Counted from the stretch's first letter, positions 16,446-40,000 are shown. The stretch: DNA of 62,667 bases from Clostridia bacterium (GCA_045637485.1 JAZTZK010000354.1:1-62667), one strand, 5' to 3'. The notes: generated by a model from the letters alone, not told the origin. Made by a program: numbers and translations.

Positions 16446-16454
16446 GTTTTACCG

Positions 16455-16972: not shown

Positions 16973-17650
16973 ATGACACTCTCAGACAAACTCTATACCA
17001 TCCTCATCAAGGGAGGCAGCTGGAAGACCATACTCGGCGGCCTGTGGGTAACGATTCAAATATCGTTTTTCGCCCTGCTGGTCGGCACGGTGCTGGGGGC
17101 GGTGATCTGCCTGCTGCGCACGCGGAACAATCCCGTTCTGCGGGGCGTCGCCTCGGTCTATATCGCCATACTGCGGGGCACGCCGGTGCTGATGCTGCTG
17201 CTCCTGCTGTACTATGGCGTGTTCGCCCGGGCGGGGCTTCAGCCGGTGACGGTGGCGGTGATCACCTTCGCGCTGAACGTGTCCGCCCACGTGGCGGAGC
17301 TGCTGCGCTCGGCGCTGTCCGCCGCGGACAGGGGCCAGGCCGAGGCCGCGCGCACGCTGGGCTTCTCCGCCTGGGATACCTTCCGGCTCATCACGCTGCC
17401 CCAGGTGCTGCGCATCGCCAAGCCCGTGTATCAGTCCACCGTGGTGAACCTGATCCAGTGGACCAGCGTGGTGGGCTATGTGACCATCACCGACCTGACC
17501 CGCGTCATCAACAACACCGCATCCCGCACGATGCAGCCGCTGCTGACCATCGGCATCGGCATGTTGATCTATCTGGCGCTGTCTTATATCATCTTTGGCT
17601 TGTTCGCACTGTCGGACAGGATAAAGAGCAGGGCGCATATGACAACCTGA
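16973..17650 (+). CDS. polar amino-acid ABC transporter permease (HisM/GlnP family)
   Basis: 225 aa with about 5 TM segments. The EAA-loop-like AARTLGFSAWDTFRLITLPQ is present. Confidence 0.85.
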   Translation: MTLSDKLYTILIKGGSWKTILGGLWVTIQISFFALLVGTVLGAVICLLRTRNNPVLRGVASVYIAILRGTPVLMLLLLLYYGVFARAGLQPVTVAVITFALNVSAHVAELLRSALSAADRGQAEAARTLGFSAWDTFRLITLPQVLRIAKPVYQSTVVNLIQWTSVVGYVTITDLTRVINNTASRTMQPLLTIGIGMLIYLALSYIIFGLFALSDRIKSRAHMTT

Positions 17651-17671
17651 CAAAATAAGGAGGAGGATTTT

Positions 17672-18526: not shown

Positions 18527-18544
18527 GATGGGAGGCGAGGCGGC

Positions 18545-19642: not shown

Positions 19643-19648
19643 TTTTTC

Positions 19649-19882
19649 GTTACGGCTCAGCCTGCGGCTTCGCCTGTGTGGACGGGAGAGCAAGCTCCCC
19701 CCCCACGGCCACCCCCTCGCAGCCTCCTGCGCGCGCCCTTCGGGCACACTTGGAAGCTGTAAGGAAGGTATTTTTTGCTTGGGTCGTCAGGCCCCCGTCG
19801 CAAAAATACCTTCGGGGTCGGCGTACACGCCGCCGTCCCCGATCAACTGTCAGAAAGGACGAGATGTACGCTGAGTGGTAAC
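19649..19882. mobile_element. MITE-like element A (234 bp)
   Basis: Ends are GTTACGGCTCAG ... CTGAGTGGTAAC. Flanks are GATTTTTC (19641-19648) and GATTTTCC (19883-19890), a 7/8 match. The 5' half is near-identical to MITE B and the 3' half to the 3' half of MITE D. Confidence 0.75.
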
Positions 19883-19884
19883 GA

Positions 19885-20631
19885 TTTTCCCCCCTCCGAC
19901 GGGACGCGCTGAACGAGATTCTTCAGGATATTCTCTTCAATGTCATGCCGTTTTCGGGCTTCAAGTATTTTGATACGTTCAACAGCCTTATTCTCGCCTT
20001 TGGCAATGGGACGATCGAGGCTATAGAGGCGGATGAATACGTGACGGGTTTCCTGTCTTCCCGCATGGAAGACCTCGCGCTTTATATACCCGACGGCCTT
20101 CCCGAATACCAGTCGGGCTATTGCATGCTCCTGAGGGAAGAGGACGTCGAGCTACGCGATCGCATTTCCGAGGCGATTACGGATATGAAGGAAGACGGAA
20201 CGCTGGATGCCCTGAAGGCGCGCTATATCGACGATGTCATAGCCGGCAGCGAGCAGGAGGTGGTGACGCCGGAGCAATTTGAGGGCGCGGATACGATCCG
20301 GGTGGCCTTGACCGGCGACCGCCTGCCCATGGATTACTTCTCCGAATCAGGGGAAGCCAACGGCTTTAATACCGCGCTCGTGACGGAGGTCGCAAAGCGG
20401 CTGGGAATGAACGTCGAATTCATCTCCGTGGATACCGGCGCGCATGCCGTCGCCCTGGCTTCACATTCAACGGATGTCGTCTTCTGGTCTGAGGTGGGCG
20501 ATTACAACAACTGGGAGAAGGCCAACGCCGAGGATCAGCCGGAGAACACCATTGTGACGGCACCCTATCTCACAGGTACGCTCTTTTACATTGTCCCGCC
20601 GGATTCCCCGCTGGCAAACAAATCCCTTTAG
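19885..20631 (+). pseudogene. family-3 solute-binding protein paralog 2, lacking signal peptide/N-terminus
   Basis: The ORF opens immediately after MITE A. Similarity to paralogs 1 and 3 starts at ..LNEILQDILFNVMPFSGFKYFDTFNS. The first ATG (19945) leaves no signal peptide. Confidence 0.65.
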
Positions 20632-20707
20632 AGCTGCCCTTTAGGCAACCCGACGATGGAAGCGCCCTCCCGGCGCTCCCAAATATTTAACACTGGAGGT
20701 ACAAATC

Positions 20708-21592
20708 ATGAAAAGAATCGTTTCGCTGACCCTTGCTCTGCTGCTGGCGCTGTGCGCGCTTCCGTTCGCGTTTGCCGAGACACAGGACGACACCGAAGCT
20801 ATTCCGGAGGACTACGGCGCATTGGGTATACTGAGGAAGATGAATATTACCGCGGAGGAGTTGAATGAAATCCTTGCGGAGCCACTGGTCGAATTGAGCT
20901 ATTACGACAGGTTCGCGGATTACGACACGGTGACCAGCCTGATCATGGCGCTGAACGTCGGGGAGATTGCGCTCATCAGCGTCGATGGCAACACTGCGAA
21001 GTACATCGCTTCCAGAAACGAGCATTTTGTGGTGCGCATCCCCAATGACGGTGATTACATGCTGGGCTACTCCATGCTGCTCCGGGGGGAGGACAGGGAG
21101 CTGTGCGAAAGGATGTCCGGGATCATCCGGGAAATGAAGGGTGACGGATCGATGGAGGCCCTGAGAAAGACCTATATCGACGATGTGATCGCCGGAAACG
21201 ATCCTGTAGAGGGCATCGTGCCGCAGTCCTTTGAGGGCGCGGACACGATCCGCGTGGCTGTGACGGGAGATCGTCCGCCGATGGATTACATTGCCCCCGA
21301 CGGGACGCCGATGGGCTTTAATACGGCGCTGATCGCGGAGATCGCCAAGAGGCTTCAAATCAATGTCGAACTGGTCAGCTTCGACAGCGGCGCGCGCGCC
21401 ATCGCCCTGGCCTCCGGCGCCGCGGACGTCATCTTCTGGTCCCAGGGCGCGAATTTTGACAACTGGAGCGACGCGGACAGCGAGGATCAGCCCGAAGGAA
21501 CCGTCGTGACCGAGAGCTATCTTTCCTCCCCCTGCCGCTATGTTGTGCTGGATTCCTCGCCGCTGGCGGATATCCTGGAGCCGTGGGAGTAA
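20708..21592 (+). CDS. family-3 solute-binding protein, circularly permuted (paralog 3)
   Basis: Signal peptide MKRIVSLTLALLLALCALPFAFA. It has the same permuted block order as paralog 1 (..IRVAVTGDRPPMDYIAPDGTPMGFNTALIAEIAKRLQI.. in the C-terminal half). Confidence 0.8.
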   Translation: MKRIVSLTLALLLALCALPFAFAETQDDTEAIPEDYGALGILRKMNITAEELNEILAEPLVELSYYDRFADYDTVTSLIMALNVGEIALISVDGNTAKYIASRNEHFVVRIPNDGDYMLGYSMLLRGEDRELCERMSGIIREMKGDGSMEALRKTYIDDVIAGNDPVEGIVPQSFEGADTIRVAVTGDRPPMDYIAPDGTPMGFNTALIAEIAKRLQINVELVSFDSGARAIALASGAADVIFWSQGANFDNWSDADSEDQPEGTVVTESYLSSPCRYVVLDSSPLADILEPWE

Positions 21593-21656
21593 GATTTTCG
21601 GCGGCGCAATCATCGTGGAGAACGCTATAACGGGTTTGAAACCCGTACCATAGAAA

Positions 21657-21726
21657 CAGATCCCCCGCTTCATTCGGGATGACGGCGATTTGACGCCACG
21701 TCATCCCGAACGGAGCGGGGGATCTG
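21657..21726. repeat. long near-perfect palindrome (28-nt arms, 14-nt loop)
   Basis: CAGATCCCCCGCTTCATTCGGGATGACG (21657-21684) pairs with CGTCATCCCGAACGGAGCGGGGGATCTG (21699-21726), with 26 of 28 positions complementary. Confidence 0.5.
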
Positions 21727-21772
21727 TGTGATCATGTGCGGCCTGTCGTGAGCGCTCGGCGCACCCTCCGCC

Positions 21773-21991
21773 GTTACGGCTCAGCCTGCGGCTTCGCCTG
21801 TGTGGACGGGGGGCAGGCTCCCCACCACGGCCACTCCCCGCAGCTTCCCGCGCGCGCCCTTCGGGCACACCCGGAAGCTGATAAGAGGTGTTTTCTTTGG
21901 AAAACGCCCCGTCCCCGACGTACACGCCGCCGGGGACGATTGTAAATCGGGGGTTGCGACCCCCGATACCCCCGTGGGGCTGAGCTGTAAC
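21773..21991. mobile_element. MITE-like element B (219 bp)
   Basis: Ends are GTTACGGCTCAG ... CTGAGCTGTAAC. The first ~125 nt are near-identical to MITE A. It has no duplication of its own (left flank CCTCCGCC, right flank AGGTCAGG). Confidence 0.7.
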
Positions 21992-22263
21992 AGGTCAGGT
22001 TTTCATCCGTCTAAAGCCTGCGTCTATGGTGCGGGAATGCCTGGACCGACGTAAGCGTCAAATATAACCGCGTCCGCACTTCTCTTTGACAGCCGGGTTC
22101 CAAGGCGCTGCCTGCGCGAGGAATCAGCGACTCCAAATGTGCGACCAGAACAGGCGGCAGCGTTCCTTTTTCAGGCGCTGCCGTGTGTATTTTGGTCTAT
22201 GCGTAAGACTGATTATATGATATAATGAAGCTGACCAATCAGGATATACAGGAGAAAGCGTAA

Positions 22264-22872
22264 ATGGATTTGAACAGGATGATACCCAAAGTAGGTTCAG
22301 CGATCGTAACGGTTACAGTATTTCTGTTTGCGATATTTGAGATCATCAATTTCTCTATGGGCAGCTTCTTTGTCTGCCTGATTCTGCCGATTGGTTTTAT
22401 CCTGATGACGGCAGGTCTGCACTACGAGTGCGAAAGCAACCGCAAAGTCGCTGCGAATATTGGGATGGTTTTTGCGGCGGTGTACTGCATGCTGATCATG
22501 GTCGTCTACTTTGCTCAGCTGACCACGGTAAACAACGAGCAACTGACCGAACAGGCGGCAAAACTGCTCGATATAAGTAAGTTCGGACTGATCTTCAACT
22601 ATGACCTGCTGGGTTATGGCATAATGGCTCTCTCTACTTTCTTTACCGGACTTTCGATGAAAGCAAAGAACAGGACAGACAAGTGGCTCAAAGCACTGAT
22701 GATGATACATGGCGTGTTCTTCTTCAGTTGCAGCTTTATGCCGATGACGGGAATGTTCTCAAGGATGTCTTCTGACGGTGGTAGTATCGGCGGAAGGCTC
22801 GCTCTTGTGGCGTGGTGTGTATATTTTCTGCCCGTCGGAATTCTTGCTTTCCTGCATTTCCGAAAAAAATGA
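22264..22872 (+). CDS. integral membrane protein, function unknown
   Basis: 202 aa with about 6 hydrophobic segments, in a low-GC region. A TATAAT-type promoter lies upstream (~22222-22232). Confidence 0.6.
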   Translation: MDLNRMIPKVGSAIVTVTVFLFAIFEIINFSMGSFFVCLILPIGFILMTAGLHYECESNRKVAANIGMVFAAVYCMLIMVVYFAQLTTVNNEQLTEQAAKLLDISKFGLIFNYDLLGYGIMALSTFFTGLSMKAKNRTDKWLKALMMIHGVFFFSCSFMPMTGMFSRMSSDGGSIGGRLALVAWCVYFLPVGILAFLHFRKK

Positions 22873-23159
22873 AATATGATACCAACAATGCACACGGAGA
22901 GATTGAGTACGTCATCGGACCGAGGTTTCAGGGAATAGGGTACGCCACAGAGATGACAAGAGCATTCATCGCATATGGATTTGAGGAGATCAACTTTCAC
23001 AGAATTGAGATTGATTGCCGTACATCAAATGAAGCGTCGCGAGGGGTTATTGAGAAGTGCAGACTGACTTATGAGGGTGTATTTCGCGATTTCTTCTGGC
23101 GGAAGGATCACTTTGAGGGAAGAAGAGGGTGCTACTTTGCCGATGAAAAAGCTGTTTGA
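22869..23159 (+). pseudogene. GNAT (RimJ/RimL-type) N-acetyltransferase, C-terminal fragment
   Basis: ..GEIEYVIGPRFQGIGYATEMTRAFIAYGFEEINFHRIEIDCRTSNEASRGVIEKCRLTYEG covers GNAT motifs A and B only. The first ~80 aa are missing. Confidence 0.55.
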
Positions 23160-23688
23160 TGAGATCCCCTATCTGGAAGGAGACCGTCTTATTCTCAGAA
23201 GGATAACAGAAAAGGACTATGGTCCTCTTCAGGAAATGGCACGCAGTAATGTCGTTTACCGTTATGAGCCAACATATCTTCTTGAGCAGCAATATACAGA
23301 TATGGATCAGCTACTACATGCTTTCTATGGAGAGTACTATGAGAAGAAGCAGAATCTGTTTCTTGGTATATTTCTCAGAAATAATCCTGGAGAGCTTTGT
23401 GGATTGGCTGAATTCTACGATTATCGAGATCATATTCATATGGTCAGTATTGGGGCACGTCTGCGTGAAAAGTACTGGAAAAGTGGCATCGGGACTGAAG
23501 TTGCAAAGCTGATGGTTGATTATCTTTTCAAAGAGACCGATATCGAAATCATTACAGCCAGCACTATGGTTGACAATAAAGCTTCAGCCCATCTGCTTGA
23601 GAAAAACGGCTTCATGACGACGAACAGCATTTCCAAAGAAAACTGGGGGTACGCTGACTCTACGGATGTTTATCGTTGGTTCCTGTAA
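23143..23688 (+). CDS. GNAT-family N-acetyltransferase
   Basis: LILRRITEKDYGPLQEM.., ..YWKSGIGTEVAKLMVDYLF.. and ..NKASAHLLEKNGF. I chose the ATG at 23143. Confidence 0.75.
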   Translation: MKKLFDEIPYLEGDRLILRRITEKDYGPLQEMARSNVVYRYEPTYLLEQQYTDMDQLLHAFYGEYYEKKQNLFLGIFLRNNPGELCGLAEFYDYRDHIHMVSIGARLREKYWKSGIGTEVAKLMVDYLFKETDIEIITASTMVDNKASAHLLEKNGFMTTNSISKENWGYADSTDVYRWFL

Positions 23689-23734
23689 GCTTCAATATGC
23701 ATATATCCTTACTGTGAGAAAGGGATGAGCGCAC

Positions 23735-24673
23735 ATGGTTCTGGAAACGAAAAGACTGTTGCTCCGGGAAATGAAACCGGATGATTTTCAAGCGCTGTCT
23801 TTGGTGCTCAGTGATCCTGAAACCATGTTGCACTATCCTTATACCTTCGACGGGCGGCACGTCAAGGATTGGATCGAAAGGAACATGAACCGCTATCGGA
23901 AGGACGGCTTCGGCCTGTGGGCAGTCTGCCTGAAGGATATCGGAGAGATGATTGGCGACTGCGGGCTGACGCTGCAAAATATCAACGGAGAATTGCTCCC
24001 CGAAATCGGCTATCATATCCGCCGTGACTGTCAGCGGAAGGGCTATGCCAAAGAGGCGGCAAAGGCTGTCCGCGATTGGGCGTTTCGGAATACAGAGTAT
24101 CCGGCCTTGTACTCTTACTGCAAATACACCAATGTGCCTTCCTTCCGAACGGCAGAATCCATCGGAATGTGTTTTGCCTGCGAATACCCGGATGAAATAA
24201 AAGGAATATCACATGTTTCAGTGATATCAAGGGAGGATTGGCTGGGCGAACTGACAAACAATATGATTCACTGGGCCGAAAACCGGCAAGGCAACAGAGA
24301 ATACGCCGGCTGGTGCCTGTCCTTCATCGAGGACGCTCTGGAGAAGAGCAACGGAATCGAGATCTTCGGCGGGGATTCCGCGAAGGAGTCTGCTTTGCTC
24401 TATGCTGATGGAATGCGTCAGGGGAAACCGGAGCGAGGCGCGTTTGTCTTCTATGATTGCATCTGCCGGGGCCCGGACGGTCCGGTCAACTGGGGGCACT
24501 GCGGCATTTGCCTCGGCTATGACAAGGTCATCCATGCCTGGGATGTGGTGCGGATCGACGATTACCGGGAAATCGAAGCCATGACAGCGCTCTCCGGGGA
24601 CCGCCCGAGATACATCGGCTGGGTACCTGTCGAAAGGGTGCTGCGGCAGAAAGGAAACAACGATGCTATTTAA
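23735..24673 (+). CDS. GNAT acetyltransferase fused to a C-terminal NlpC/P60 (papain-fold)-like domain
   Basis: The N-terminal half is GNAT-like: LLLREMKPDDFQAL.., ..RKGYAKEAAKAVRDWAF... The C-terminal half has a candidate Cys nucleophile (AGWCLSFIEDAL), then PERGAFVFYD and WGHCGICLGYDKVIHAWD. Confidence 0.7.
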   Translation: MVLETKRLLLREMKPDDFQALSLVLSDPETMLHYPYTFDGRHVKDWIERNMNRYRKDGFGLWAVCLKDIGEMIGDCGLTLQNINGELLPEIGYHIRRDCQRKGYAKEAAKAVRDWAFRNTEYPALYSYCKYTNVPSFRTAESIGMCFACEYPDEIKGISHVSVISREDWLGELTNNMIHWAENRQGNREYAGWCLSFIEDALEKSNGIEIFGGDSAKESALLYADGMRQGKPERGAFVFYDCICRGPDGPVNWGHCGICLGYDKVIHAWDVVRIDDYREIEAMTALSGDRPRYIGWVPVERVLRQKGNNDAI

Positions 24674-24900
24674 GGGGATCGGCAGGACTGATTGTGAGAT
24701 CATGTATTGCCGATAGACCGCCGAAATCAGGTGAGAAAGAATTATGAGGGGGTGAGAACAGCAAGGGGAAATTAACAGTATTGGCCGGAAGTCCTCGCAG
24801 GATTGGAATACTGCGCTGCTCGCGGAGAGCTTTGCCATAGGGTTAAGCAAAAGCAACCTGTCGATAAACCGTACTGGACAGGTGAGGAGGCCTGAAAGAA

Positions 24901-25326
24901 ATGTTCAACGCGAATATGATCGCCCCGTGCGGGCTGGACTGCAGCATCTGCAAGCGAGCGCTGGCCGAGACCAGCCCCTGTGCCGGATGCCGGGGCCCAA
25001 ATGACAACAAGCCCGAATTCTGTTCGGCTGGATGCGGCATCATCCTGTGTGAAAAGAGAAAGGCAAACGGGTATGCGTTCTGTGATGAGTGCCCGGATTT
25101 TCCCTGTGCTGACGTCATGGAAAAGGAAACCCGGTACGGATCGAAGTACCCACTCCGCGAATCCCCGCTGGAGAATCTGCGAGCTATCAGGGAAGCCGGG
25201 ATGGCTGCTTTTCTGGAGCGCGAGCGGAAGCAGTGGGCCTGTCCCGCCTGCGGAGGCATCATCTGTGTCCATACGGGCGTGTGCAGCGGCTGCGGCCGGC
25301 AGTATAACGGTTCAGTGAACCGCTGA
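24901..25326 (+). CDS. DUF3795-like cysteine-rich protein
   Basis: APCGLDCSICK..CAGCRG..FC..CGIILC..FCDECPDFPC and a C-terminal CPACGG..CSGCG. GAGGAGG RBS. Confidence 0.6.
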   Translation: MFNANMIAPCGLDCSICKRALAETSPCAGCRGPNDNKPEFCSAGCGIILCEKRKANGYAFCDECPDFPCADVMEKETRYGSKYPLRESPLENLRAIREAGMAAFLERERKQWACPACGGIICVHTGVCSGCGRQYNGSVNR

Positions 25327-25342: not shown

Positions 25343-25792
25343 ATGCAGACAATATCATTTGCGGAAGGAAACGAGCAGCATCTGAAAGATTGCATGGACG
25401 CGCTATGCCGCTCGGTACTTGGCGAAAAATGCTCTTCTTCCCCAGGGAGCACGGAAAACGCAAACCTTGAAGGGATTCTCCGGGGGAATTTGTATGTTGC
25501 GCTCATCGCCGAGTACAAAGCCGCTGGTCGGCGCAAGGAGATCGAAGGCGCACTGAAGGCGCTGCACCGGGACAGCCGCGAGGCGGCCATCCCGGAAGAC
25601 CTCTGTTTCGTGTATGGAGTGTATCCGGAAGACTACCTCCACGACGTGGAGATTTGCCAGCGGTTTGCCCCCAGAAGCCGGGAGCGGATGGCGGAAATCA
25701 TTCTCGGACGGTATCTGTTCAGTCATGGCGGCGTAGACACCGCCGCTACGAGGAGATATGCCTGTAGCGGCGACACGAAGTTAGTCCTTTAG
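25343..25792 (+). CDS. hypothetical protein (possibly degraded GNAT-like); C-terminus encoded by repeat element G
   Basis: The start MQTISFAEGNEQHLKDCMDALCRSVLGEK resembles some GNATs, but later motifs are not recognisable. The last ~27 codons and the TAG stop lie inside repeat 25711-25816. Confidence 0.3.
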   Translation: MQTISFAEGNEQHLKDCMDALCRSVLGEKCSSSPGSTENANLEGILRGNLYVALIAEYKAAGRRKEIEGALKALHRDSREAAIPEDLCFVYGVYPEDYLHDVEICQRFAPRSRERMAEIILGRYLFSHGGVDTAATRRYACSGDTKLVL

Positions 25793-25816
25793 GGCGACAC
25801 GTAGTTAGTCCTTTAC
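25711..25816. repeat. left-end half-copy (G) of the second repeat family: TIR + hairpin module + 2 x 24-bp units
   Basis: GTATCTGTTCAGTC is at 25711-25724. The units GGCGACACGAAGTTAGTCCTTTAG (25769-25792) and GGCGACACGTAGTTAGTCCTTTAC (25793-25816) follow. Confidence 0.7.
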
Positions 25817-27039
25817 AGAGGCAGTTTTCTACCCTGCTTCTTCCATTCCAGGAACTCAGCGGTAGCTGTGAAGATCACGTCGCCGGAAGAATTCAACGCC
25901 GTTTCCAGGGAATCCTGGATCACGCTGATGATGAAGCCAACGCCCACCAGCTGCATGGCGGTGTCATTCGATATGCCGAACAGAGAGCAGCCCAGGGGCA
26001 CCAGCATCAGCGATCCGCCCGCCACGCCGGAGGTACCGCAGGCCGAGAACGTTGCCACGATACTCAGGAAAATCGCCATCGGTAATGTAACATGAACGCC
26101 CGTGGTAAACGCAGCCGCCAGGGAGAAGATGGTAATGGTCACCGCCGCGCCGTCCATATTGATGGTGGAGCCCAGAGGAATCGACACCGAATACAGATTC
26201 TCATCCAGGCCCAGCTCCTTGCACAACTCCATGTTCACAGGGATATTGGCCGCGGAGCTTCGGGTGAAGAAGGCGGTGACGCCGCTCTGCCTGAGGCAGC
26301 GCAACACCAGCGGATAGGGGTTGTGTCGAAGCACCAGTCCCACGATCACCGGATTTACCACCAGCGCTACAAAAAGCATCGTGCCCACCAGCAGGCCGAT
26401 CAGCTGGCCGTAGGTTTTGAATATCTCCGCTCCACTGGACGATACGGCGCTGAATATCAAACCCAGTATGCCGAAGGGCGCGCAGGCGATAACCCAACGC
26501 ACCACCGCGGATACTGCGTCGGCCAGGTCTTCCATCATTTGCTTGGTACCCGGCTTAGCCAGCTTCAACGCAATCCCGAACACCACAGCCCAGAACAGTA
26601 TACCGATGTAATTGGCACTGGCAAGCGCTTCCACAGGATTGGCAATGATGCTCCCCAACAGGTTTATCACCACTTCGGACATCCCCTGTGGTGCGGCGGA
26701 GGCGTCCGCGGCCTCCAGGCGCTTCAGTGGAATAATCACCGGAAAGGCGAAGCTGGTAACCACAGACACGATCGCCGCACATAGAGTGCTGAAAAGGTAC
26801 AGGATGATGACTGTACGGAACTTGGCCATGCTGCCACCCTTGGAGTTGGCCAGGGATGACGCGACGAGCACAAATACCAGGATAGGAGCAATGGCTTTCA
26901 ACGCGCCGACGAACAAATCGCCAATCACACCGATCCACTTGAGCCCCGGCGCAACAAAACCCAACACCGCGCCGATGATCAATCCAATCAGGATTCGCGC
27001 AATCAGGCTCATGGAATTCCATTTCTTGATGATACCCAT
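25813..27039 (-). CDS. sstT: serine/threonine:sodium symporter SstT (DAACS family)
   Basis: MSLIARILIGLIIGAVLGFV.. and conserved blocks such as ..SSAANIPVNM.. and ..PLGSTINMDGAAV... I chose the ATG at 27039 (GGGGTG RBS). The stop codon is supplied by the last repeat unit. Confidence 0.85.
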   Translation of the reverse strand: MGIIKKWNSMSLIARILIGLIIGAVLGFVAPGLKWIGVIGDLFVGALKAIAPILVFVLVASSLANSKGGSMAKFRTVIILYLFSTLCAAIVSVVTSFAFPVIIPLKRLEAADASAAPQGMSEVVINLLGSIIANPVEALASANYIGILFWAVVFGIALKLAKPGTKQMMEDLADAVSAVVRWVIACAPFGILGLIFSAVSSSGAEIFKTYGQLIGLLVGTMLFVALVVNPVIVGLVLRHNPYPLVLRCLRQSGVTAFFTRSSAANIPVNMELCKELGLDENLYSVSIPLGSTINMDGAAVTITIFSLAAAFTTGVHVTLPMAIFLSIVATFSACGTSGVAGGSLMLVPLGCSLFGISNDTAMQLVGVGFIISVIQDSLETALNSSGDVIFTATAEFLEWKKQGRKLPL

Positions 27040-27242
27040 AATCCACACCCCACATGCTTGTTTTATGAAATTATACCATCTTTATAGTCATTTGACAAGG
27101 AATATATGGACTCACAATCAACGTCGGCCGGATGCGTCAGCCCAATATCTTCATTCTCCCGGCAAGCAAGCGTCATGCCGCCTTATGCATGCTCAATATG
27201 ATCATCCCTTCATCCCTCCCAAAGCAATACCAGTGGAAAAAG

Positions 27243-28217
27243 CTATTCTGCGCTCACTCTCCATGTTTGATATTGAGATTTGTTTAACATACTTTGAAGT
27301 TGCTCTTCGTCCTCGCCAAGCCTGACCCTTCTGAACATCACCAACACGCGGTTGTCATTCAGACAGGTCGAAAGTGTCAATATTGCGTCACCCGGTTCAA
27401 CGATTACGGGAATATTGTACAGCGACCTGGCCTTCGCCCGATGGATATAATCATTGAATGCATCCACGGTATAAAAAGTCGCAATCCCCGTATACGGAAA
27501 ATATTGCTTTGATTCCATATCCTCCGGGGTGGACATAACGGCAAACACAATATAGCGTTCATTGCGAAACAGTGTGTTAAAGCTGATTATGCCATGTTTG
27601 TGTATGTAGCGCAGGTTTCGATAATGGATCAGTAATCCGAACATGCTGCCGTCGACCATATCGTGTCCGTGTATGACAAGGTGCTGTGTTTCAGCTTTGA
27701 AGGGATGTGTTTCATCCAAAAAGAGCGTGCCTGCCCTGTTCTTCTTGCCATTGAAATCGTGGTCGAGATAGTAACTGTTATTGCGATACACTACCGGCAG
27801 TCCAAGCACACCATCAATGTCCAGCCATCCAACCAGGTCAGTATTGCGCGCATATAGCTTTCGCAAGGGCATCTGAATCTCTTGCCCGATCAACTGATAA
27901 GTATCCAGAATTCTCTGTTCGGATTGGGTTTGAATGTCATCCCATAATAAATCTCTATCCGCTTCGTATGTAGCTGCAAAAGCCGGTGGCGCATTGGTTT
28001 TTGCGGCTTCAACCGCCTCCACATCATCAAGTGGCAGGGACTGTTGTTCATAGTCCCTGCCCAGGCTGTCATTGGTCATGCGCGTTTTCAGCGCGTTCCC
28101 GCAAAACATGAGCATCCTGAAGCCGCCATAGATGACGAGCATCGCACAAGCAATCATCAGCGCCCTTTGAATCTGTCTCCTGCGGGCTGCGATTCGCCTC
28201 TTCCCGGTCATATTCAT
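27243..28217 (-). CDS. srtB: class B sortase
   Basis: An N-terminal TM segment, then NTDLVGWLDIDGVLGLPVV..NNSYYLDHDF.., HLVIHGHDMVDGSMFG and the catalytic-Cys block LTLSTC. Confidence 0.8.
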   Translation of the reverse strand: MNMTGKRRIAARRRQIQRALMIACAMLVIYGGFRMLMFCGNALKTRMTNDSLGRDYEQQSLPLDDVEAVEAAKTNAPPAFAATYEADRDLLWDDIQTQSEQRILDTYQLIGQEIQMPLRKLYARNTDLVGWLDIDGVLGLPVVYRNNSYYLDHDFNGKKNRAGTLFLDETHPFKAETQHLVIHGHDMVDGSMFGLLIHYRNLRYIHKHGIISFNTLFRNERYIVFAVMSTPEDMESKQYFPYTGIATFYTVDAFNDYIHRAKARSLYNIPVIVEPGDAILTLSTCLNDNRVLVMFRRVRLGEDEEQLQSMLNKSQYQTWRVSAE

Positions 28218-28220
28218 CTT

Positions 28221-31169
28221 CTACCTGGTCAGGAAACTTTTGCGCCCATACAGAATACCGGCCATGCCCACAGCCAGCATCAGCAACCAAAGCATCGGTT
28301 TGGAGGTATCCCCTGTTTCGGGAATATCCGAAGGCGCATTTACATGAAGGACGGCAATTGTGCTCTCTGCCACATTTCCCTTTGAATCCCGTATGACGCA
28401 CTTATACTGATACCCATCATTTGAAAGATCGACGACGGATGTCAAATATTCCGCGCCGGTTGCGCCGTCGACAGCCACCCATCCCTTACCATCATTGCGG
28501 TTAATTAACCACTGATAGCTCAGGCCATCGCCCGTCGCGACAACCGCAAATTTCGCACGTTGTCCCTCGACGACGTATTGATCCTCGGGCTGGGTTTCGA
28601 TGCTGATCGGAGCCCCGGAGAACACTGCCGTAACCTGGATATGATTCGGTGGCACGGTCAGAATGGCGTTCGGGTCTTTGACATCGGAGATGATCGCCTG
28701 GACAGAGGTGGTTTCCCACCGCAGGAAGCGCGCGCCCTCGTCCGGAATGGCCGACAGGGCCACCTGCGTACCCGCCGCACATTTGATGTCGATATTCTTG
28801 ACGGCTCCGTTTCCGGAAGAGGAGAATTTCACATCGTACAGGGGGACTTCTTTAAATTTTGCCGTCACCGAGCTGTCTTTATTCACCGCAAATCTGTACT
28901 CTGGTTCGGTCCAGACGCACTTCCCGTCCACATACCAGCCCTCAAAACTGCCCCCGACGACGGGTTTTGCTGTGAGCTTCGCGAAGCTGCCATCCACGAA
29001 CCTGCCTCCGCCATAGGCGATGCCACACAGATTGTTACACCTGATGTTGACATCGTAATACCTGACGTTATCACCGCTGGACCGGCTGTGTATGGGAACT
29101 TCGCCATCCGGGCCTGTCAGCGTGTATCTGACAGAGGTGCCCTGATGTCCCGCCTCGCCATACATGTCTTCAGGAATCTCAGGGATGTCACCCACATATT
29201 CATCGCCCGCGGCAATGTCCATGTCATAGTAATTCTGCGTCAGGATGGGCTTGCCACTGGAGAGATGATATTCGCTGACGTGATAGTTCAGCTTTCCATC
29301 AACCGTCGCACGCATTTTGACGTTGTAATGCCGATCACCGGGGACTTGAATGATCTTTTCATCGTTTTCATTGATCGCGCAGAACACGGCGGCGTCAATG
29401 GTGACGGGTTTTTCAGACCGGATTCTCGCCACACTATGTCCTTTATCCACTTCGACGACTTCCACATCGACGGGGCAGTTGATGCGAATAACGCGTACGA
29501 TCTGCGGCATTTCACTAAAATCAGCATTGCGTCGGGCCATGACGCGCACCCATGCCAGCGTCATTTCCGCGTAATGGGCCTGGAGGAAGTTATATTCCCA
29601 CAACAGGTTGTCCAAAAACTGTATAAAACGAATATTCTGCGAGGCAATGGTTCGCGTCATGGCCACAAATACCTTACCCAGGCCCTCTATGAGCTTCACA
29701 ATATCTGAAATCTTCGATGCCATTCCCGAGGATTCCAATGCGTTTATGAATATCTGGGCGAACCGTTCACCAGACAGCTCCACCCGTTCCTCGAATGACA
29801 TCGTGCTGATCGAGAAGAAGGGAGCGATGATGTCTATTACACCCGCAAAGTCGTCGGCCATGAGCTTATCGCTCAGATCGGCCAGGAGTATACGGTAATC
29901 ATCGGTCTCCTTTCCGCCCATCAAATCCGCAAGCAGCGAAACCAGCGTGTCCTCCGCCACTCCCACGTAATTCGTCCTCAAATCAAAGCCGGTCGAAGCG
30001 ATATCATTGACAAAGGAATTCATGAGGATAGCATTGCTGAGGGATTTATCGTCCACCATCTCGATATCGATAAATGTACCGCCATCGAAAATGAAAAAGG
30101 GATCCACATCAATGCTCACGGTCCGCGCGTAATCCGGTACGTGATTGACGGTGTTTTCCTGATTGGTGATGACGGGAACGCCGCTGTTGTCGATGATGTT
30201 TTTGTATTCCGCCTCCATCTCCTTGAGCGCTGACGGATAATCCCCCGAGCTGATGTTAAACAGGTAGTGATCTTCTCCAAAGCGCGCGAAGTCCCAATAG
30301 GACATGGCCACCAGCGGCACCAGGTCGTTGACATTGAGGATATTGTGGATATTGCTGGCGCCTGGATGGCTGTCGCGCTCCTCTCTGGCGATTGACAGCA
30401 TGGTGCCCTGGGGCGCTTCAAATGTATAACAATACAGATCCTGTGGGCTGACCTTTGCGCCGTTGCCCAAATCATGTCCCATATTGAGGGCGCCGGCCGT
30501 GATGTTCGCCACTGCGCCACCACGGCTGTAGCCCACCAGCCAGAGCTTGATCGGGCCCGAAATATCATAGTCCCTGATGTACTGCGACAGAAATTCCAGC
30601 GCCTCGTCGCGGGCGATGGAAAAGCCGAGGTGTTCGCCTGAGCCGCCGAGCTGGAAATTGCTGCCCCATTCCCTCCTATAGCCGCCGCCGCGTATCAGCA
30701 GGGCGATCAGGGTCTGACCCTCAATCTCCTTTTTCGCGGCGACGGCGCCGATTGAGTTGATGGAAGGTGCCTGGCTCCAGAATTCGTTTTGCTCAAAGTC
30801 CATAAAGCCAATGCCATCCTCGCCCGTCAACAGTGTGCGGGCGTTTTTTGTTTTATTGGCTCACTCGCTTTCTTCGTTGCTCGGCCATGTTGACAGTTCG
30901 AGGCACAGGGACATTTCCGCCAACTCCCAGCTGAACTGTGTGGCAGGCTTCTTGAAGAAATCGTCGGAATATTTATAGATCGCGGAAGCATCCAGTTCCC
31001 CGTTAAATGAGCCTGGGAATTTGAAGGCGTCAATCTTTGAAATCCCCCCCTCGGCCTGAACGGGAAACGCCGGTATTGGACCCGACAGCATAATGCCGGC
31101 CATGATGATGCCGACCATGATGAAGCTCAACCACCGCGTGAAAGCCGTCTTCACTTCATATTCCTCCAT
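28221..31169 (-). pseudogene. cell-wall-anchored lipase/alpha-beta-hydrolase-like surface protein interrupted by one in-frame TGA
   Basis: The two track ORFs (30861..31208 and 28221..30830) are in the same frame. They are separated only by the TGA at 30861-30863 and ten sense codons. The upstream piece has the signal peptide (..WLSFIMVGIIMAGIMLSGPIPAFPVQAEG). The downstream piece has the GYSRGG nucleophile elbow, an InlB-B-repeat-like segment (FEGWYVDGK), an Ig-like domain and a C-terminal sorting signal (IPETGD, then a hydrophobic stretch, then RKSFLTR). Confidence 0.75.
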
Positions 31170-31498
31170 CTTTTGTTGTGCATTGATACTATGAAAAGCA
31201 GCTTCCACAGCCCTTTGAAGGTATATACGTCGCCGGACTGACTGGTGAGATCGACTTCGCAGAGCTTGTTCTTGTAGTCATAGTCCGACGCCATCTTTGC
31301 AGCAGCTCGTCCAGCTTTTCCAGCTGGTAATAGCGAAGCAATGCGGCGTTTAGTAGCATCCTTTCATCGTTCCTCCATGCGAAAAAAGGTCTATGTAACT
31401 GTGACTCCATATCCTCAAAATCAAATCATATAATACTATAGTTTTGGTATTGATTCCATTTCTCAAATATAACAAATCCATTATAATTTGAACATATT

Positions 31499-31648
31499 AG
31501 CGACACGAAGTTAGTCCTTTAGGGCGACACGTAGTTAGTCCTTTAGGGCGACACGAAGTTAGTCCTTTAGGGCGACACGAAGTTAGTCCTTTAGGACGGC
31601 CTCCAGGCCGCCAAAGCAGGTGCAAATACATCAGGACTGAACAGATAC
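31499..31648. repeat. right-end half-copy (F) of the second repeat family: 4 x 24-bp units + hairpin module + TIR
   Basis: Units are at 31499-31522, 31523-31546, 31547-31570 and 31571-31594. Then GACGGCCTCCAGGCCGCCAAAGCAGGTGCAAATACATCAG, then GACTGAACAGATAC (31635-31648), the exact reverse complement of 25711-25724. Confidence 0.75.
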
Positions 31649-32659: not shown

Positions 32660-34006
32660 TTACGCCTTCGATACGTCGGCGCTGCGCGGATATCTCCATT
32701 TCAGCATCGCCGCGCAAAGGATCGCCGTGATCAGCGACGCCAGCGGCGTGGCATACCAGATGGCGTTCGCGCCGAAGAGCGCCGGCACCAGGTAGACCAT
32801 CGCCACCGGGGCCGCCAGTGATTCGCATACGGCGATCAGCGCGGAGGCCAGGCCGTCACCCAGTCCGGTAAATACGGACGAGACGACCAGATTAAAGCCG
32901 TAGAACAGGCAAGCCAGCGACGAGATGCGAAGCGCCTGCATTGCCAGACCGCGGGCAGCGTCGTCATAGCCCAGGTAGACGCTGGCGATGGGGCCGGCGA
33001 AGGCCGCGCACAGCAGGCACATCACCACGCCCAGCCCCACCGACAGGAGGCTGCCTGTGCGCGCCAGGCTGTCCAGCTCCTTCCTGTTCTTCGCGCCGTA
33101 CTGGTATCCGACCACCGTGACCATTGTGCTGGAGATGCCGAAAAACACGGCCATGAACAGCTCGATCACATAGTTGTACACGCCCATCGCCGCCACGCCG
33201 ATCTCCCCGATGTAGCGGGTCAGCTGGCTGTTGATCACCAGCTGGGTCAAATTCGCGGTGAGGCCGTCAACCATTTCGGAGAATCCGTTGCCGCAGATCC
33301 GGCCCAGCTCACGCAGGTGGGCCATGTTTACCCGGACCAGTCGCAGAGACGAGGCGTTGGGCCGGAGGAAGTACACGGCGGTGAACCCGGCGGTGATCAG
33401 CGCCGACAGGGACGTGGCCAGCGCCGCGCCCCGAACGCCCCAGCCCAGCGGGCCCATGAACAGCCAGTCCAGCAGCACGTTCAGCGCCCCGTTCACCACG
33501 GACACCCACATGCCCAGTACGGGCTTTTCCGCGGTGATCCACAGCGACTGGAACGCCGCGTTGACCAGATAGGCGGGTAAAAACGCCGTCAACAGCCGCC
33601 CATAGTCGACGCAATAGGGGATGGCGGCCTCCGTGGCACCCACCAGCCGCGCCAGGGCGGGCATCAGCGCCGTCGCCAATCCGCCCAGCACGATCCCCAG
33701 CAGCATCATGACCACCATCGACAGGGTGAACACCTCCCGGCCCTTCTGGCGCTCACCCTCGCCCATCAGCTGGGCCACGAGAGCGCTGGTGCCGGAGCCG
33801 AACATGAAGCCCAGACCGTAGAGCACGAGAAACGCCGGGGAGATGAAGTTGACCGCCGCGAAGGGGGTCACCCCAAGGTAGTTGGACACGAACACCCCAT
33901 CCACCAGCTGGAACGAGGTGATCGCCAGCATCTGGCCGATGGCGGGCAGGGAATAGCGCAAAAGCTTTCCCCAGGTAAAGTGTTCCGAAAGCTCGATCTT
34001 CTTCAT
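32660..34006 (-). CDS. MATE-family efflux transporter (translationally coupled to the NRPS gene)
   Basis: 448 aa with about 12 TM segments. Its start overlaps the NRPS stop by 4 nt (ATGA). Confidence 0.85.
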   Translation of the reverse strand: MKKIELSEHFTWGKLLRYSLPAIGQMLAITSFQLVDGVFVSNYLGVTPFAAVNFISPAFLVLYGLGFMFGSGTSALVAQLMGEGERQKGREVFTLSMVVMMLLGIVLGGLATALMPALARLVGATEAAIPYCVDYGRLLTAFLPAYLVNAAFQSLWITAEKPVLGMWVSVVNGALNVLLDWLFMGPLGWGVRGAALATSLSALITAGFTAVYFLRPNASSLRLVRVNMAHLRELGRICGNGFSEMVDGLTANLTQLVINSQLTRYIGEIGVAAMGVYNYVIELFMAVFFGISSTMVTVVGYQYGAKNRKELDSLARTGSLLSVGLGVVMCLLCAAFAGPIASVYLGYDDAARGLAMQALRISSLACLFYGFNLVVSSVFTGLGDGLASALIAVCESLAAPVAMVYLVPALFGANAIWYATPLASLITAILCAAMLKWRYPRSADVSKA

Positions 34007-37000
34007 GTCGTTTCTTCTCCAAGCACGATATTCCGCAGGTGTTTTTTGAACAGGGCAAGGAACCGGGCCATGCTGCCCTCGGCATAGGCCTTCTTCTGGT
34101 ATTCCACCGTCGCGCCCAGGGTGTCCCCCCAGGGCTCGATATAGACGCCCACCCGCTCACCGGCGATGGCGTTTTCGGCCTCCAGCCCGATCTCCTCGCC
34201 GCCCAGGGCGGACAGGGCGTCGTCCATGTCCAGGGCTCCCAGCCAGTTGATCTCCATGGAATCCTGGAGCGTATCCTCGCCGACCTCCAGATAGTTGCTC
34301 CTGCCGTTAATGAAGCCCGCGGCGATCTGGCGGTTGACCTCGCTGATCAGCGCCTCCAGGGTCTCATAGCGCTGGGTCTGTACCGCCACCGGCAGCTCCC
34401 GGAACAGCAGCCCCATCGTGTGATCAAAGCGGGCGTCCGTGCGGTCGTTGTTGATCCACTTCAGCAGGATGTTCTCCCTGTGGCAGTACTCCTGGAGGGC
34501 CAGTATGCCCGCCGTGACGCACAGCGCGTTGCCGGAGGTGGACAGGCGGTTCCCGCACGCCTCGACTTCCCCGAGGGTCAGCCCAAGGTCCAGGCCCTCG
34601 CTGCCCAGGTCGGCCTCCCAGGATACATAGTCCGGCGTGGGCACATTGCACCACGGTCGTTTTCCCAGCAGGTTCCGGTAATACTTCTCGGCTTTCCGGT
34701 ATTCCTTCGATTCAACCGCCTGCTTCTCCGCCAGCAGCCAGGAATAATAGTTGTCCTGGGGCAGGGCTTCGCCCCGGTAGGCCAGGGCGATGTCATCCAG
34801 CAGAACGCCCACGGAAAAGCCGTCCGAGATGATGTGGTGCATGTCCAGGAACAGGTAGAGCCATTCCCCGCTGCGATACAGCCCGCCGCGGAACAGGGCG
34901 CCCCCGATCACCCGGAAGGGCCTGATCAGGCCGCGCAACGTCTCCTCCAGCCGATCCTCGGGCACCTCCTCCAGCGCCACCGCCTCCAACTGCTCGGGGC
35001 GCCAGCGCTGCACCAGGTTGCCCTCGTCATCCATCTCCAGCACCGTCGAAAGCGCCGGATGGTTGCGTACGGCGGCGTTCACCGCGTCCAGCAGGCGACG
35101 GGCGTCCACGCTCGCCGGGAACCGGTACAGCGTCGGCAGGTTGTACATCACGGAATTCACGTGGATGAACTGATAATCCACCATGCCGATCTGGCCGGTG
35201 GTGGCGGGCAATGTCATGCCCCGGGCCCGGTTTTCATCCTCAGGGGTGATGCTGCCCTTGCGTCCGCCGTATTCCGCGGCCAGCTTCGCCGGGGTCTTCA
35301 GGCGCATCAGGTCCACCGCCGTCAGGCCGTCCAGGTCCGCCAGCGCCATGGCCCTCATGCTGCGCAGGGAGTTGCCGCCCAGGGCAAAGAAATCGTCGTT
35401 CACACCCACGGCGCCCGGCTCCAGGTCCAGCGCCGCGGCGAAGGCGTCGCACAGCTTCTGCTCGGTCGCGCTTCGCGGCGCCAGATAGGGCGCCTTCGCG
35501 GCGGTCACGTCCGGGTCGGGCAGCGCCCGCCGGTTGATCTTGCCGTTGGGCGTCATGGGCATTTTCTCCAGCCGCAGGAAGTACTCCGGCACCATATAGC
35601 CCGTCAGCCGGGAGGCCATGAATGCCTTCAGTTGTTCTTCCTCCACCGTCCCGGAGGCGGCGTAGTACAGGCATAGCATGTCCCTTCGCACCTCCGCCGC
35701 CGCCTGATCCACGCCCTCGAACAGGGCGGCGCAGTTCTCCACCTCGCCCAGCTCGATGCGGAAGCCCCGCAGCTTCACCTGGTTGTCCAGGCGGCCCAGG
35801 AAGCATAGCTCGCCGTTCTCGTCGTAGCGGGCCAGGTCGCCGGTGCGGTACATTTTCGTGCCCGCCATGAACCGGCAGTCGCAGAACCGCTCCGCCGTCA
35901 GCTCGGGCCGCCGCCAGTAGCCCTCGGCGATCTGGGGCCCGGCCAGGCACAGCTCGCCCGCCATGCCCCGGGGCAGCAGGTTCCCGCTGCCGTCGCAGAT
36001 GAACGACCAGGTGTTCGGCACGGGCCGCCCGATGGGGATGTTGACATCCCGCTCCTGATCCACGATGTGGAAGGACGAGGAGACGGTGAACTCCGTGGGA
36101 CCGTAGCCGTTGATGAGCTGCGTGGACGTCCTGGCGCAGGGCAGCATCTTTTCGCCGCCCATCATCAATGTCTTCAGGCCCACGTCCGGGTACTGATTGA
36201 TCAGCGCCATACCTATCTGGGTGGACAGGGACATGCAGGTGACCCGGTGATCCCTGAGATACGCGGCCATGCCCTGCAAATCCTGCCGCAGTTCTTCGGA
36301 GATAATATGCACCTGCGCACCTGCCGTCATCGGCTGAATCAGGTCGTCCAGCGAAGCGTCAAAGGAAAAGCTGGCATGTTCGGCGTGAACGCTGTCCGGG
36401 GTGATGCCGAACAGCGCAATTCCCCATGCGACGAAGGCCCGCAAGGCGCGATGGCTCTGCATGACGCCCTTGGGGCGGCCCGTGGAGCCGGAGGTGTAGA
36501 TCATGTAAGCCAGACGCTCCGGCGTTGCGCGATTGACGGGGGCGGCATTGGCAAATTCGGCAACGGCCCGGGCCAGTTCCTCCTCCGTCAGCGTCACCTT
36601 CGCCCCGGAATCCTCCAGCATATAGGCGATTCGGTCCTCGGGATAGTCGGGATCGACGGGCACATAGGCCGCCCCGGCCTTGTTGACCCCCAGCACAGCG
36701 GCGACGAATGCCCTGACGCGACCCATCTTCACCGCCACAAAGTCGTCGTCGCCGACGCCGCGCGCCAGCAGCCAGGCCGCCACGGCGTCTGAGGCGCGGT
36801 CCAGCTCGCCATAGGTATAGTAACCCCGACTGTCCACCACGGCGGTCCTTTCCGGCGCCTGTGCCGCCCACCTTTTGAACATGTCCACCCAGGTCTCGCC
36901 CCGGTCATAGGCCAGGTCTTCACCCCGGGAGAGGGCGATCACGGCGTCGGCGTCGGGCTGGGAGAGCCGCGGCAGCAGTGCGACGGGCGCGTCGGGCCGG

Positions 37001-40000
37001 TCCACGACCTGTGCCTCCAGGTTGGACACCAGCGCGGCCAGGCGCTCCATCTCCACGGCGCGATAGCGGCTTTCATCGAAGGTCAGGCGGATATCGACGC
37101 CGCCGTCGGGCAGGGCGACGGCATCCACGCCGACGAAGCCCGGAACGTGCTCCTCCCGGATCAGCGCGGGCCGCAGCAGCCCCTCCCCGCGCGCCTCTTC
37201 AGCATAGTTTTCATAGGAGATCGTGATCGCGCCCAGCTTCACGTCGCCGTCCATCGCCCTCTGGACGTCGGACAAGGCGCAGTAGTCGTAGGACTTGGTA
37301 GCGCAGCCCTGTTCGTGAAGGGCTTTCAACAGCTGACGCGCCGTGACGCCCTTCTCCAGCCGCACCCGCACCGGCACGGCGTTGATAAACAGGCCCACCA
37401 GGTCGGACACATCCAGGCTATAGCCGTCCCGGCCCGACACGATGGTGTTGAAGGTCACGTCGTCCTGGCGGGTGGCCGTGGCGAGCGCCAACGCCCAGAC
37501 CAGGTTGAAGCCGTCCGCCGGCGTAGCCCCGGCCTCCCGGCACAATTCCGCCAGCCGCCCGGTGATCTCGGGCGACAGGGTGAAATGCATCTGATTGTCC
37601 GCCGCCCGCTCGGCCTCGGGCACCTCGCCCCAGCAGGGAAGCTCGCAGCCGCCCTCCAGTCCGTCCAGCAGCTTTGTGAAATAGCCCACGGCGGCGTTCC
37701 GGTCCCGCGCGAGCTGTTCCCGGACGGCGCGCTCGTACTGCCCGTCGTCGCTGCCCGTCAGCGTCTTTCCGGCCAGCAGGGCCTCCAGGTCCCGCAGGAT
37801 CGTGTCAAAGCACCAGCCGTCGGTGATGATGTGGTGGGTGGCGAAGATCAGATAGCCGCCCTGTCCGGTCCTGCCATAGACGAACTGAGTCAGGGGCTTT
37901 TCCTGCAAATCATAGCCGTCGTCCAAAAACTCCAGCCTGATCCTCTGCGCCTCGGCGAAGGGGTCGGCGCACGCCGTCAAATCGACGATTTTCAGCGGCA
38001 GCTTCCGGTCCACGATGGCCTGGCGGAAGCGGGACACGCCCCTGTGGATGATGGCCGTGCGCAATACCTCGTGCCGACTGGCCAGCGCGTCCACGGCATG
38101 GCGAAGCAGCGCCTCGTCCAGCGGGCGGGTACATTCATAGATGTCGATCAGGCGATAGGCATGGCTTTGGGGGTGGGTCACGTGCTCCAGCAGCATGCCC
38201 TCCTGCATCGGCGTGAGGGGATAGATGCGCCGCAGCGCCTCGCCCCGGGCGGCAAATTCGGCGCTTATCCGCTCAAATTCCTCCAGGCTCCATTCCGTCT
38301 CGCCCAGGTCGGAGGCGGTGGTTTCCAGCGACCCGGGCTGGGCGTTCAGGAAGGCGCTCAGGGTCGTGATGTTCTTCAGGATCGCCTCCGCGAAGGATCG
38401 CGCCAGGGCCTCGGTAAACCGTTCGGCATTGTAGTCCAGCCACAGCGTGAAGCGCCCGCCCTCCACCAGGCAGTTGATCGCCAGGTCGCTGCCGTCGTGA
38501 TTGCGCGGATCGAAATAGTCCAGCCCCGCCGAGAAGCCGTCGACGCTGTCAGGCTCAAAGAATTCGCCCTTCTCCTCTTCGCCGGACACGTCGCCCAGGT
38601 AGTTGAAGATCACCATGGGGGCCCGTTCGGTCTGGAAATGCGTCTCGGGCGCGCCCTCCACAAAGGCCAGTATGTTGTAGCCCACGCCCTTGTTGGGGAT
38701 GGCGTGCAGCGTCTCCTTGGTGCGGATCAGGTCGGTCCTCGTATCGCCGGTGAAGCCCTCCAGCACCACGGGAAAGATCGACGTGAACCAGCCGATGGCG
38801 CGGTCGATGGAGAGCCGCCTGCCCAGCTCCTCCCGGCCGTGGCCCTCCATGCTGACGGACACGGCGTCCTTGCCGAACGCCTGCCGGTAAGCCTGGCCCA
38901 AGGCGGTCAGCAGCAGATCGTTGACCTGCAGCCGCCGCGCGTTCAGCCGGGTTCTCCGGAAGGCCTCGGTGTCGGCCTCGGACATGGCCACGCTCAGCGA
39001 TTCAAAACGGCGGGCGTAATCCTTGTTGTCGGAGGTATCCAGCCCCAGCATCCGCGCCTCCACGCCCTTCCAATAGGGAATCTCCTGCGAAAGCGCGTAG
39101 CTCGAACGATAGCGCTTCATGGCCTCGGCATAGTCCCGGTAGGTGTGGGTCTTGGCGGGCAATCGGATTGCTTCCCCGCGGATGGCCTGGCCGTAGGCCG
39201 TCTCCAAATCGCCCATCCAAATGCGCCAGCTGACGCCGTCCACGATGGTATGGTGGGCGGTGAGGAAGAACAGGTCGCGCGCTCCCGCGTGAATGAGGGC
39301 CAGTCGGACCAGCGCTTTTTCGATGTCCAGATGAGACTGGATCTCCTCGCACAGCGCCCGAATGGCTCCGGTTTCGTCCGCCCCGAGGGTGTATTCCTCA
39401 ATGGGGATCTTCTCGTCGGCGGGGCGCACGAAAAGATGACCGTCCCGGATGACGGCGCGGAGCATGTCATGCTGGACCGCGATGGCGTCCGACGCCCTTT
39501 GCAGCGCGTCCAGGGAGGCCCGCCCATGTACGGTCAGCAGCGTGGATTGATTGTAGTACGCCGGATTGGGATAATCCAGATCCTTGAAGAAGGCGAATAT
39601 GGCCGTGTCCGCCACCTCGCCCTCGAAGGGCGCCTGGCTGACGGCCTCGGCCCCGGAGGACGCCAGCCCCGCTGCCAGCGCCCGGGCCGTGCGGGCCTTC
39701 ATCACGTCCGCCACGGAGGCGGCATAGCCCAGATTGCGAAGCGCGCTCACCAGGCGAATGGCCTTGATGGAATCGCCGCCCAGCTCAAAGAAGTCATGGG
39801 TGACGCCCAACGGCTCGGCAACGCCCAACACCTTCGCCATAGCGCTGACCATGTCTCGCTCCGCGTCGGTCTCAGGGGCAACGTATTCCCGGGAACCGCA
39901 GATCACCGGGTCCGGCAGCGCTTTGCGGTCGATCTTGCCATTGACGTTGTGCGGCATGGTTTCCAGGCGCATGAACGCGCCGGGCACCATGTAATCGGCC

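Follow-up and report, generated by a model that had tools for sequence, protein, structure and literature searches.

The G..F unit occupies positions 25711-31648 of a 62,667-nt contig of a Clostridia bacterium (GCA_045637485.1, JAZTZK010000354.1:1-62667); the whole contig is referred to here as the window. It consists of a left half-copy G, three minus-strand genes (a serine/threonine transporter, a sortase and a surface protein) and a right half-copy F. On the best reading of the sequence, G and F would be the two ends of one non-autonomous element of roughly 200 bp, with a 5.7-kb gene block inside its array of 24-bp units. A single array-bearing miniature element of the ISBst12 group, split by the gene block, is held at about even confidence.

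Anatomy of the G..F unit

The terminal repeat is the 14-mer GTATCTGTTCAGTC, present exactly at 25711-25724 (plus strand), 31635-31648 (minus strand) and 14521-14534 (minus strand), and with one mismatch at 16596-16609 (minus strand). Four matches with at most two mismatches are found in the window (0.34 expected; none of 100 shuffles reached four). The perfect inverted pair at the two ends, described in an earlier note on this DNA, is exact and correctly oriented. Such a pair is not significant by itself, because several 14-bp inverted pairs are expected by chance in 62.7 kb (about 7 by an estimate of our own, N^2/2 divided by 4^14). The case for terminal repeats is significant because of subterminal similarity: the compact copy E is 88% identical to F over 43 nt and 85% identical to G over 34 nt.

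Read on the minus strand, E is GTATCTGTTCAGTC-GTGGCAGC-GTCTAC-GCCGCC-AAAGTAGGTGTAAATACATCAGGACTGAA. The same sequence is obtained when G 25711-25744 and F 31613-31641 are joined at CCGCC. Because E joins both end types, G and F represent the two dissimilar ends of a single element type, as the earlier note had supposed. Its account of E as joined modules free of units stands for the joining of the end types; E has one hairpin, and its second repeat keeps 7 of 14 nt. Relative to E, everything from the extra hairpin of G through the hairpin of F, arrays and genes included, sits in the central hairpin loop of E. Predicted DNA folds have -9.8 kcal/mol (z = -2.0) for E and -17.4 kcal/mol (z = -1.97) for G. 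E lies within the 3' end of a RelB-antitoxin-like open reading frame (ORF; 14442-14783), about 30 C-terminal residues of which are read from E, as the Pfam match covers residues 9-68 only.

The layout of the half-copies is as first described: repeat, hairpins and two units in G; four units, hairpin and repeat in F. The unit is GCGACACGAAGTTAGTCCTTTAGG, all six copies are on the plus strand, and 0 are expected by chance. The first two units of each array are alike and in the same order (25770-25815 = 31500-31545, 46 of 46 bases); a perfect direct repeat of 46 bp thus lies on either side of the 5.7 kb. On the left, the junction falls directly after the last sense codon of sstT, the TAA stop of which (25813-25815, minus strand) is second-unit sequence. 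The right junction of the block is the start of a unit.

No second end for G or F is present in the window within two mismatches. A candidate second end of F at 31395 (GTAACTGTGACTCC) was rejected as no better than shuffled sequence. The lack of an own second end in either half and the direct orientation of all six units both count for a single element. Complete, independent insertions G and F, which the earlier note had named as the finding that would speak against it, were looked for and not seen; likewise neither flanking copy has both ends, as a composite of two complete miniature elements would require. An Rfam search returned no family anywhere in the window.

Table 1. Positions and properties of the features of the window
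Feature	Position	Strand	Properties
G..F unit	25711-31648		flanks CTCGGACG / AAATGATA; no duplication
Left terminal inverted repeat (G), GTATCTGTTCAGTC	25711-25724	+	exact; 10/14 bases in common with ISDge4 repeat GTAACTGCTCAGCA
Subterminal hairpins of G	25725-25769	+	hpA1 GGCGGC GTAGACA CCGCC; hpA2 CCGCCGCTAC..GTAGCGGCG
Left array, GAAG type then GTAG type	25770-25817	+	two 24-bp units; final 2 nt diverge
sstT, serine/threonine transporter	25813-27039	-	NF010151 equivalog, 575 bits (cut-off 308); Pfam SDF
Class-B-like sortase	27243-28217	-	Pfam Sortase; TIGR03064 114 bits, below cut-off 153.75
Surface protein	28221-31169	-	Lipase_3, InlB B-repeats, PETG sorting signal; in-frame TGA near 30860
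218-bp orphan segment	31282-31499		between shared gene block and F array; absent from relative L124
Right array, GAAG, GTAG, GAAG, GAAG	31500-31595	+	Tandem Repeats Finder: period 24, 4.0 copies, 97% matches
F hairpin (GGCC TCCA GGCC GCC) and subterminal AAAGCAGGTGCAAATACATCAG	31596-31634	+	88% match to E, 43 nt
Right terminal inverted repeat (F)	31635-31648	-	exact match; Fic stop codon 10 nt away
Compact copy E	14465-14534	-	repeat, one hairpin, subterminal part, 7-nt remnant of second repeat; flanks TTCTCTCC / TTTGAAAG, no duplication
Insertion sequence, ISBst12 group, IS66 family	14866-16445	+	29-nt inverted arms; ends GTTACTACTCAGCC
Left end of insertion sequence to right end of element c	14866-21991		flanks AGGTCAGG / AGGTCAGG; 8/8
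Miniature element a, mixed ends	16455-16609	+	left GTAACAGCTCAGTC; right ATATCTGTTCAGTC (minus-strand reading), G/F-type
Element b	19649-19882		flanks GATTTTTC / GATTTTCC; 7/8
Element d	45474-45660		flanks ATTCTGCC / ATTCTGCC; 8/8

Family assignment and target-site duplications

The terminal repeats of the window form one set, GT[AT][AT]C..[CT]TCAG, in which the G/F repeat is included. ISDge4, a member of the ISBst12 group in the IS66 family whose activity is experimentally established, ends in GTGACTACTCAGCA / GTAACTGCTCAGCA and produces an 8-bp duplication (PMC12898284). The G/F repeat is of the family type (GTnACnnCTCAGC), with 10 of 14 bases in common with GTAACTGCTCAGCA of ISDge4 and 9 of 14 with GTTACTACTCAGCC of the resident insertion sequence (IS). 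Miniature element a has one end of each type, which ties the G/F repeat to the GTWAC..CTCAG family. Judged by these likenesses, the G/F terminal repeat is assigned to the ISBst12 group. The window resembles ISBst12-group elements in its GTnAC..CTCAG repeats, in the 8-bp duplication of three of its events, and in its single-ORF DUF6444/DDE_Tnp_IS66 transposase. It differs in that the G/F repeat is diverged and G..F lacks a duplication.

The resident transposase (406 aa, 14953-16173) has Pfam matches to DUF6444 and DDE_Tnp_IS66 and scores 75 bits with NF033517, below the cut-off. The repeats of its IS differ from the G/F repeat at 5 of 14 positions.

The 8-bp hallmark is detectable in this genome, because three other events of the window show it (Table 1). 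The outer ends of G..F have none, as had been noted earlier. Besides the transposase, the 7.1-kb composite (14858-21999 with flanks) holds three genes resembling ABC-transporter permeases and two more ORFs; its flanks suggest that it transposed as a single unit. A GC-rich hairpin module (GGTCGGCGTACACGCCGCCGACC) is present at 16633-16674 and also at 19803-19882; it is 88% identical to positions 10854-10896 of locus L001, which adjoin a distant sortase homologue in the metagenome-assembled genome W1P25.031. Element d has the ends GTTACGGCTCAG / CTGAGCTGTAAC and one G..C-type unit (45536-45559) between CCTCCCC and GGGGAGG. Locus L039, from a relative's sample, has two units in an element resembling d, apparently at the same position.

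Origin of the gene block

The basic form of the element would be the 70-bp E, with terminal repeat, central hairpin, subterminal part and terminal repeat. The loop of the central hairpin would have been filled stepwise, by the extra hairpin first and then by the tandem array of 24-nt units. The last fill would be a 5.7-kb piece of the host chromosome (surface protein, sortase, sstT and 218 bp), placed at a unit boundary in the array. The block may have entered by Campbell-type recombination between unit arrays, via a circle carrying units, or alternatively by repair of a break within a six-unit array; both routes are proposed because the flanking two units are identical (46/46). The earlier suggestion that recombination within the arrays of two elements captured or inverted the segment is retained in part. 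Capture fits the 46-bp direct repeat and is favoured. Two elements are not needed, and inversion was rejected on geometry, as the units would then be inverted and the terminal repeats direct.

The gene block is native to the species. Loci L124 and L125, from relatives, are 96.8-97.2% identical to the window across a stretch that takes in the surface gene, the sortase and the beginning of sstT, and the core MATE and nonribosomal peptide synthetase (NRPS) genes in L002 and L003 are about 95% identical. The bracketed genes diverge like core genes, and are therefore native rather than foreign passengers; the sortase has no homologue above 55% outside the species. The bracketed block is not conserved as a unit: the alignment of L124 (96.8%) covers window positions 26986-31281 and breaks off at the latter, 218 bp short of F.

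By its anatomy, G..F could be a transposase-less cargo cassette, movable in principle by a cognate ISBst12-type transposase. No sign of movement of the whole unit is seen.

Several points weigh against the split-element reading. The intact long form (repeat, hairpins, units, hairpin, repeat) was found nowhere, so that the state before insertion is reconstructed from E alone. The outer ends carry no 8-bp duplication, which leaves even the original small insertion undocumented. Of the marks of an integrative element with attL/attR, the 46/46 direct repeat is present; no integrase or recombinase domain was found in the three bracketed genes. The 218-bp segment has no traced source. The comparison with L124 ends at the start of sstT. 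The assembly is of metagenome type, and a wrong join could hide in the 96-bp array.

Alternative readings

Alternatively, G..F might be a mobile insertion cassette proper, with passenger genes and no transposase between its terminal repeats. It would have transposed in one piece of 5.9 kb, and rearrangement beside its ends would later have erased the duplication. This is considered unlikely. The terminal repeats are perfect and correctly oriented, the perfect AGGTCAGG duplication around 14866-21991 points to long-range mobilisation by the ISBst12-type family here, and both outer flanks are rearranged, which could have removed a duplication; however, the duplications of element d (8/8), element b (7/8) and the 7.1-kb composite (8/8) have survived. 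In addition, L124 has the genes but neither the 218 bp nor F, the divergence of the genes matches that of core genes, and no second copy is present in any collection searched. The G/F repeat is absent elsewhere from 145 fetched loci, from viral contigs (two patterns) and from plasmids (queried with a reconstructed element). Neither a second site nor a precise polymorphism was seen, as L124 shares the genes only to 31281. The possibility raised earlier, that a cargo-carrying unit transposed to this site, is not borne out: no 8-bp duplication flanks it, the collections searched hold no second copy, and L124 diverges 218 bp before F.

An assembly artefact, in which an intact small element lies between the left fragment and Fic and the gene block, located elsewhere beside other unit arrays, was joined through the identical 24-bp arrays, is improbable. 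It would require two wrong joins. Both block-array junctions are unique sequence, so that units do adjoin the block at either end. With no more than 46 bp, the left array is short enough to be crossed by ordinary reads and by k-mers from about 49 upwards. On the other hand, the window is a complete contig, taken from the NCBI assembly of an organism that has not been cultured, and the 96-bp array consists of four near-identical units. Genomes of this kind hold unit arrays at several places, and the contig L039, which comes from a related sample, breaks off within one.

Least probable is that G and F are unrelated partial elements with independently built arrays and a chance likeness to the ends of E: the 24-nt unit is independent, with sharp borders in 107 contexts listed, arrays occur elsewhere (L039, L145) and the GTAG/A..T variant is also present in L145, but coincidence would be required in the end types joined by E, in mutual orientation, in array direction and in the first two units (46/46).

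The 24-nt unit beyond this locus

A scan of metagenomes for the unit gave at least 120 stretches (L004-L123), nearly all with a single copy among the matches listed. In 107 distinct contexts listed, conservation of the unit GCGACRCGAAGYTAGTCCTTTAGG stops at -1 (G) and +1/+2 (G, C), and the information content beyond its borders is about 0, the sharp borders of a 21-27-nt small dispersed repeat. Positions 5 and 11 covary in 108 contexts listed (G..C 94, A..T 12, G..T 2, A..C 0), which fits a predicted GNA mini-hairpin, RCGWAGY. Host contigs fall into two groups, of about 40% GC (cyanobacteria-like) and about 60% GC (gut Clostridia-like), and an exact copy is present in a plasmid of the cyanobacterium Chondrocystis sp. 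NIES-4102. A flanking stem of at least 6 bp is found in 11% of the unit contexts listed, against 1.6% of controls. In the viral contig L145, ATGGCGGC..GCCGCCGCTAC encloses an array of three units in its loop; this is also the module of hpA1 in G, where the loop contains GTAGACA only. The unit is also found between inverted flanks in L144 and in many metagenome contexts. It has stop codons in two frames on each strand; L141 is a further locus. A literature search by unit sequence returned unrelated primers only. On this distribution, the unit is a module in its own right, shared widely, rather than something peculiar to the G..F element.

A wider proposal is speculative and, in our estimate, improbable. 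The unit GCGACRCGAAGYTAGTCCTTTAGG would be a self-contained micro-element with a covarying GNA mini-hairpin, common base for base to cyanobacteria and gut Clostridia, which inserts into hairpin loops and builds tandem arrays. The arrays would serve as portable recombination sites that load chromosomal gene blocks into ISBst12-type miniature elements and so give rise to cargo transposons without a transposase, and G..F would be such a loading event, caught as it happened.

Comparison with known systems

In the mobile insertion cassettes of Bacillus cereus and in integron mobilisation units, repeats of an IS family bracket passenger genes, and no transposase is present. Both are documented at several sites with duplications, and integron mobilisation units use two complete miniature elements. 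G..F is alike in that its repeats bracket genes without a transposase. Unlike integron mobilisation units, it would be one split element, and its mobility is undocumented.

BOX elements of Streptococcus pneumoniae consist of boxA, a variable number of boxB and boxC. Alike are the two different end modules, the variable tandem internal units and a unit-free form (E). Unlike BOX, the sequences are unrelated and the internal unit is a free-standing, cross-phylum 24-nt module. No BOX element is known to enclose genes.

Small dispersed repeats of Nostocaceae were reportedly treated by Elhai et al. in 2008 (Genome Res 18:1484). The unit is likened to them by description, not by sequence: its size, its sharp borders and its position in hairpin loops are alike. 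PMC5861425 and PMC4390886 describe such repeats as 21-27 nt in length, with sharp borders and precise insertion in repeats or palindromes, and abundant in cyanobacteria; the former reports none outside Nostocaceae (PMC5861425). The present unit, unlike these, is carried by a Chroococcales plasmid and by GC-rich contigs of gut Clostridia type, and it forms tandem arrays.

Bracketed genes

The bracketed content had been given as srtB, sstT and a surface lipase. SstT is firm and Lipase_3 is present; the sortase scores below the class-B cut-off, and the surface gene is interrupted by a TGA. For SstT, an exact protein is on record (P0380), and a strong promoter-like site is located at 27098-27070. 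The sortase belongs to a 90% cluster of 7 members, every other homologue being at most 55% identical; in species-representative genomes it has one relative (46%), without the repeat. The in-frame TGA of the surface gene (about 30858-30860) is TGG in the 97%-identical L124, the 972-aa protein of which is uninterrupted; the TGA may mark either a pseudogene or a sequencing error.

The 218-bp segment has no similarity to any fetched locus. An AT-rich promoter region upstream of the surface gene had been proposed, but no minus-strand promoter-like site was found in 31209-31499. Nor is 25817-31498 the self-contained unit once suggested: the 218 bp are outside the block shared with the relative, and the sstT stop is inside the last left unit.

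Flanking sequence and relatives

The source organism is rarely sampled, and the MATE protein homologues are named Clostridia. L002 and L003 diverge from the window exactly at the Fic start codon and have an amylase gene there instead, after MATE. The Fic/HTH gene is of prophage type, 90% identical to loci that also have ParB-methylase and terminase genes; its homology is confined to 32583-31657, from the start codon to 2 nt past the stop. To the left, a truncated GNAT gene retains no codon beyond 57, nucleotide homology ends at 25508, and a 202-bp orphan follows. Breakpoints are at 25508, 25710, 25815, 31281, 31499, 31648, 31657 and 32583. The region thus reads as a patchwork, in which the sequences beside both terminal repeats are rearranged. 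The same gene order without the repeats, which the earlier note had asked for in relatives, is seen on the F side only. No link between the relative's contigs L124 and L002 was found. The distant relative L143 shows only lineage variation downstream of MATE.

The ORF 25343-25792 is chimeric. Codons 1-57 correspond to the beginning of a GNAT acetyltransferase (74% to L126); the remainder is orphan, runs into the terminal repeat and ends at a TAG stop inside the first unit. Positions 22264-25326 carry small same-strand genes (GNATs, DUF3795), like the arrays in gut contigs L126-L128, which also contain NUDIX, glyoxalase and histidine-phosphatase genes. The DUF3795 protein is in a 599-member cluster at 90% identity and is therefore widely exchanged. 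An integron-like reading of this small-gene array was set aside: gaps implied by the ORFs are mostly short, the spacers not having been searched for attC-like repeats. Directly upstream of the MATE gene is a 2457-aa NRPS-like ORF with internal repeats (34003-41376). The NRPS-MATE pair is kept in relatives down to 64% identity, whereas each lineage examined has a different sequence downstream of MATE.

Implications

If the split element is real and mobilisable, chromosomal genes can enter a miniature transposon without two complete copies of it. The genes concerned here are a transporter, a sortase and the surface substrate of that sortase. The cross-phylum unit would extend the little-understood class of very small mobile repeats well beyond the described cyanobacterial family and would provide a gut-bacterial test system. 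If only a local rearrangement is involved, G..F would be another repeat-marked recombination hot spot in a mosaic region.

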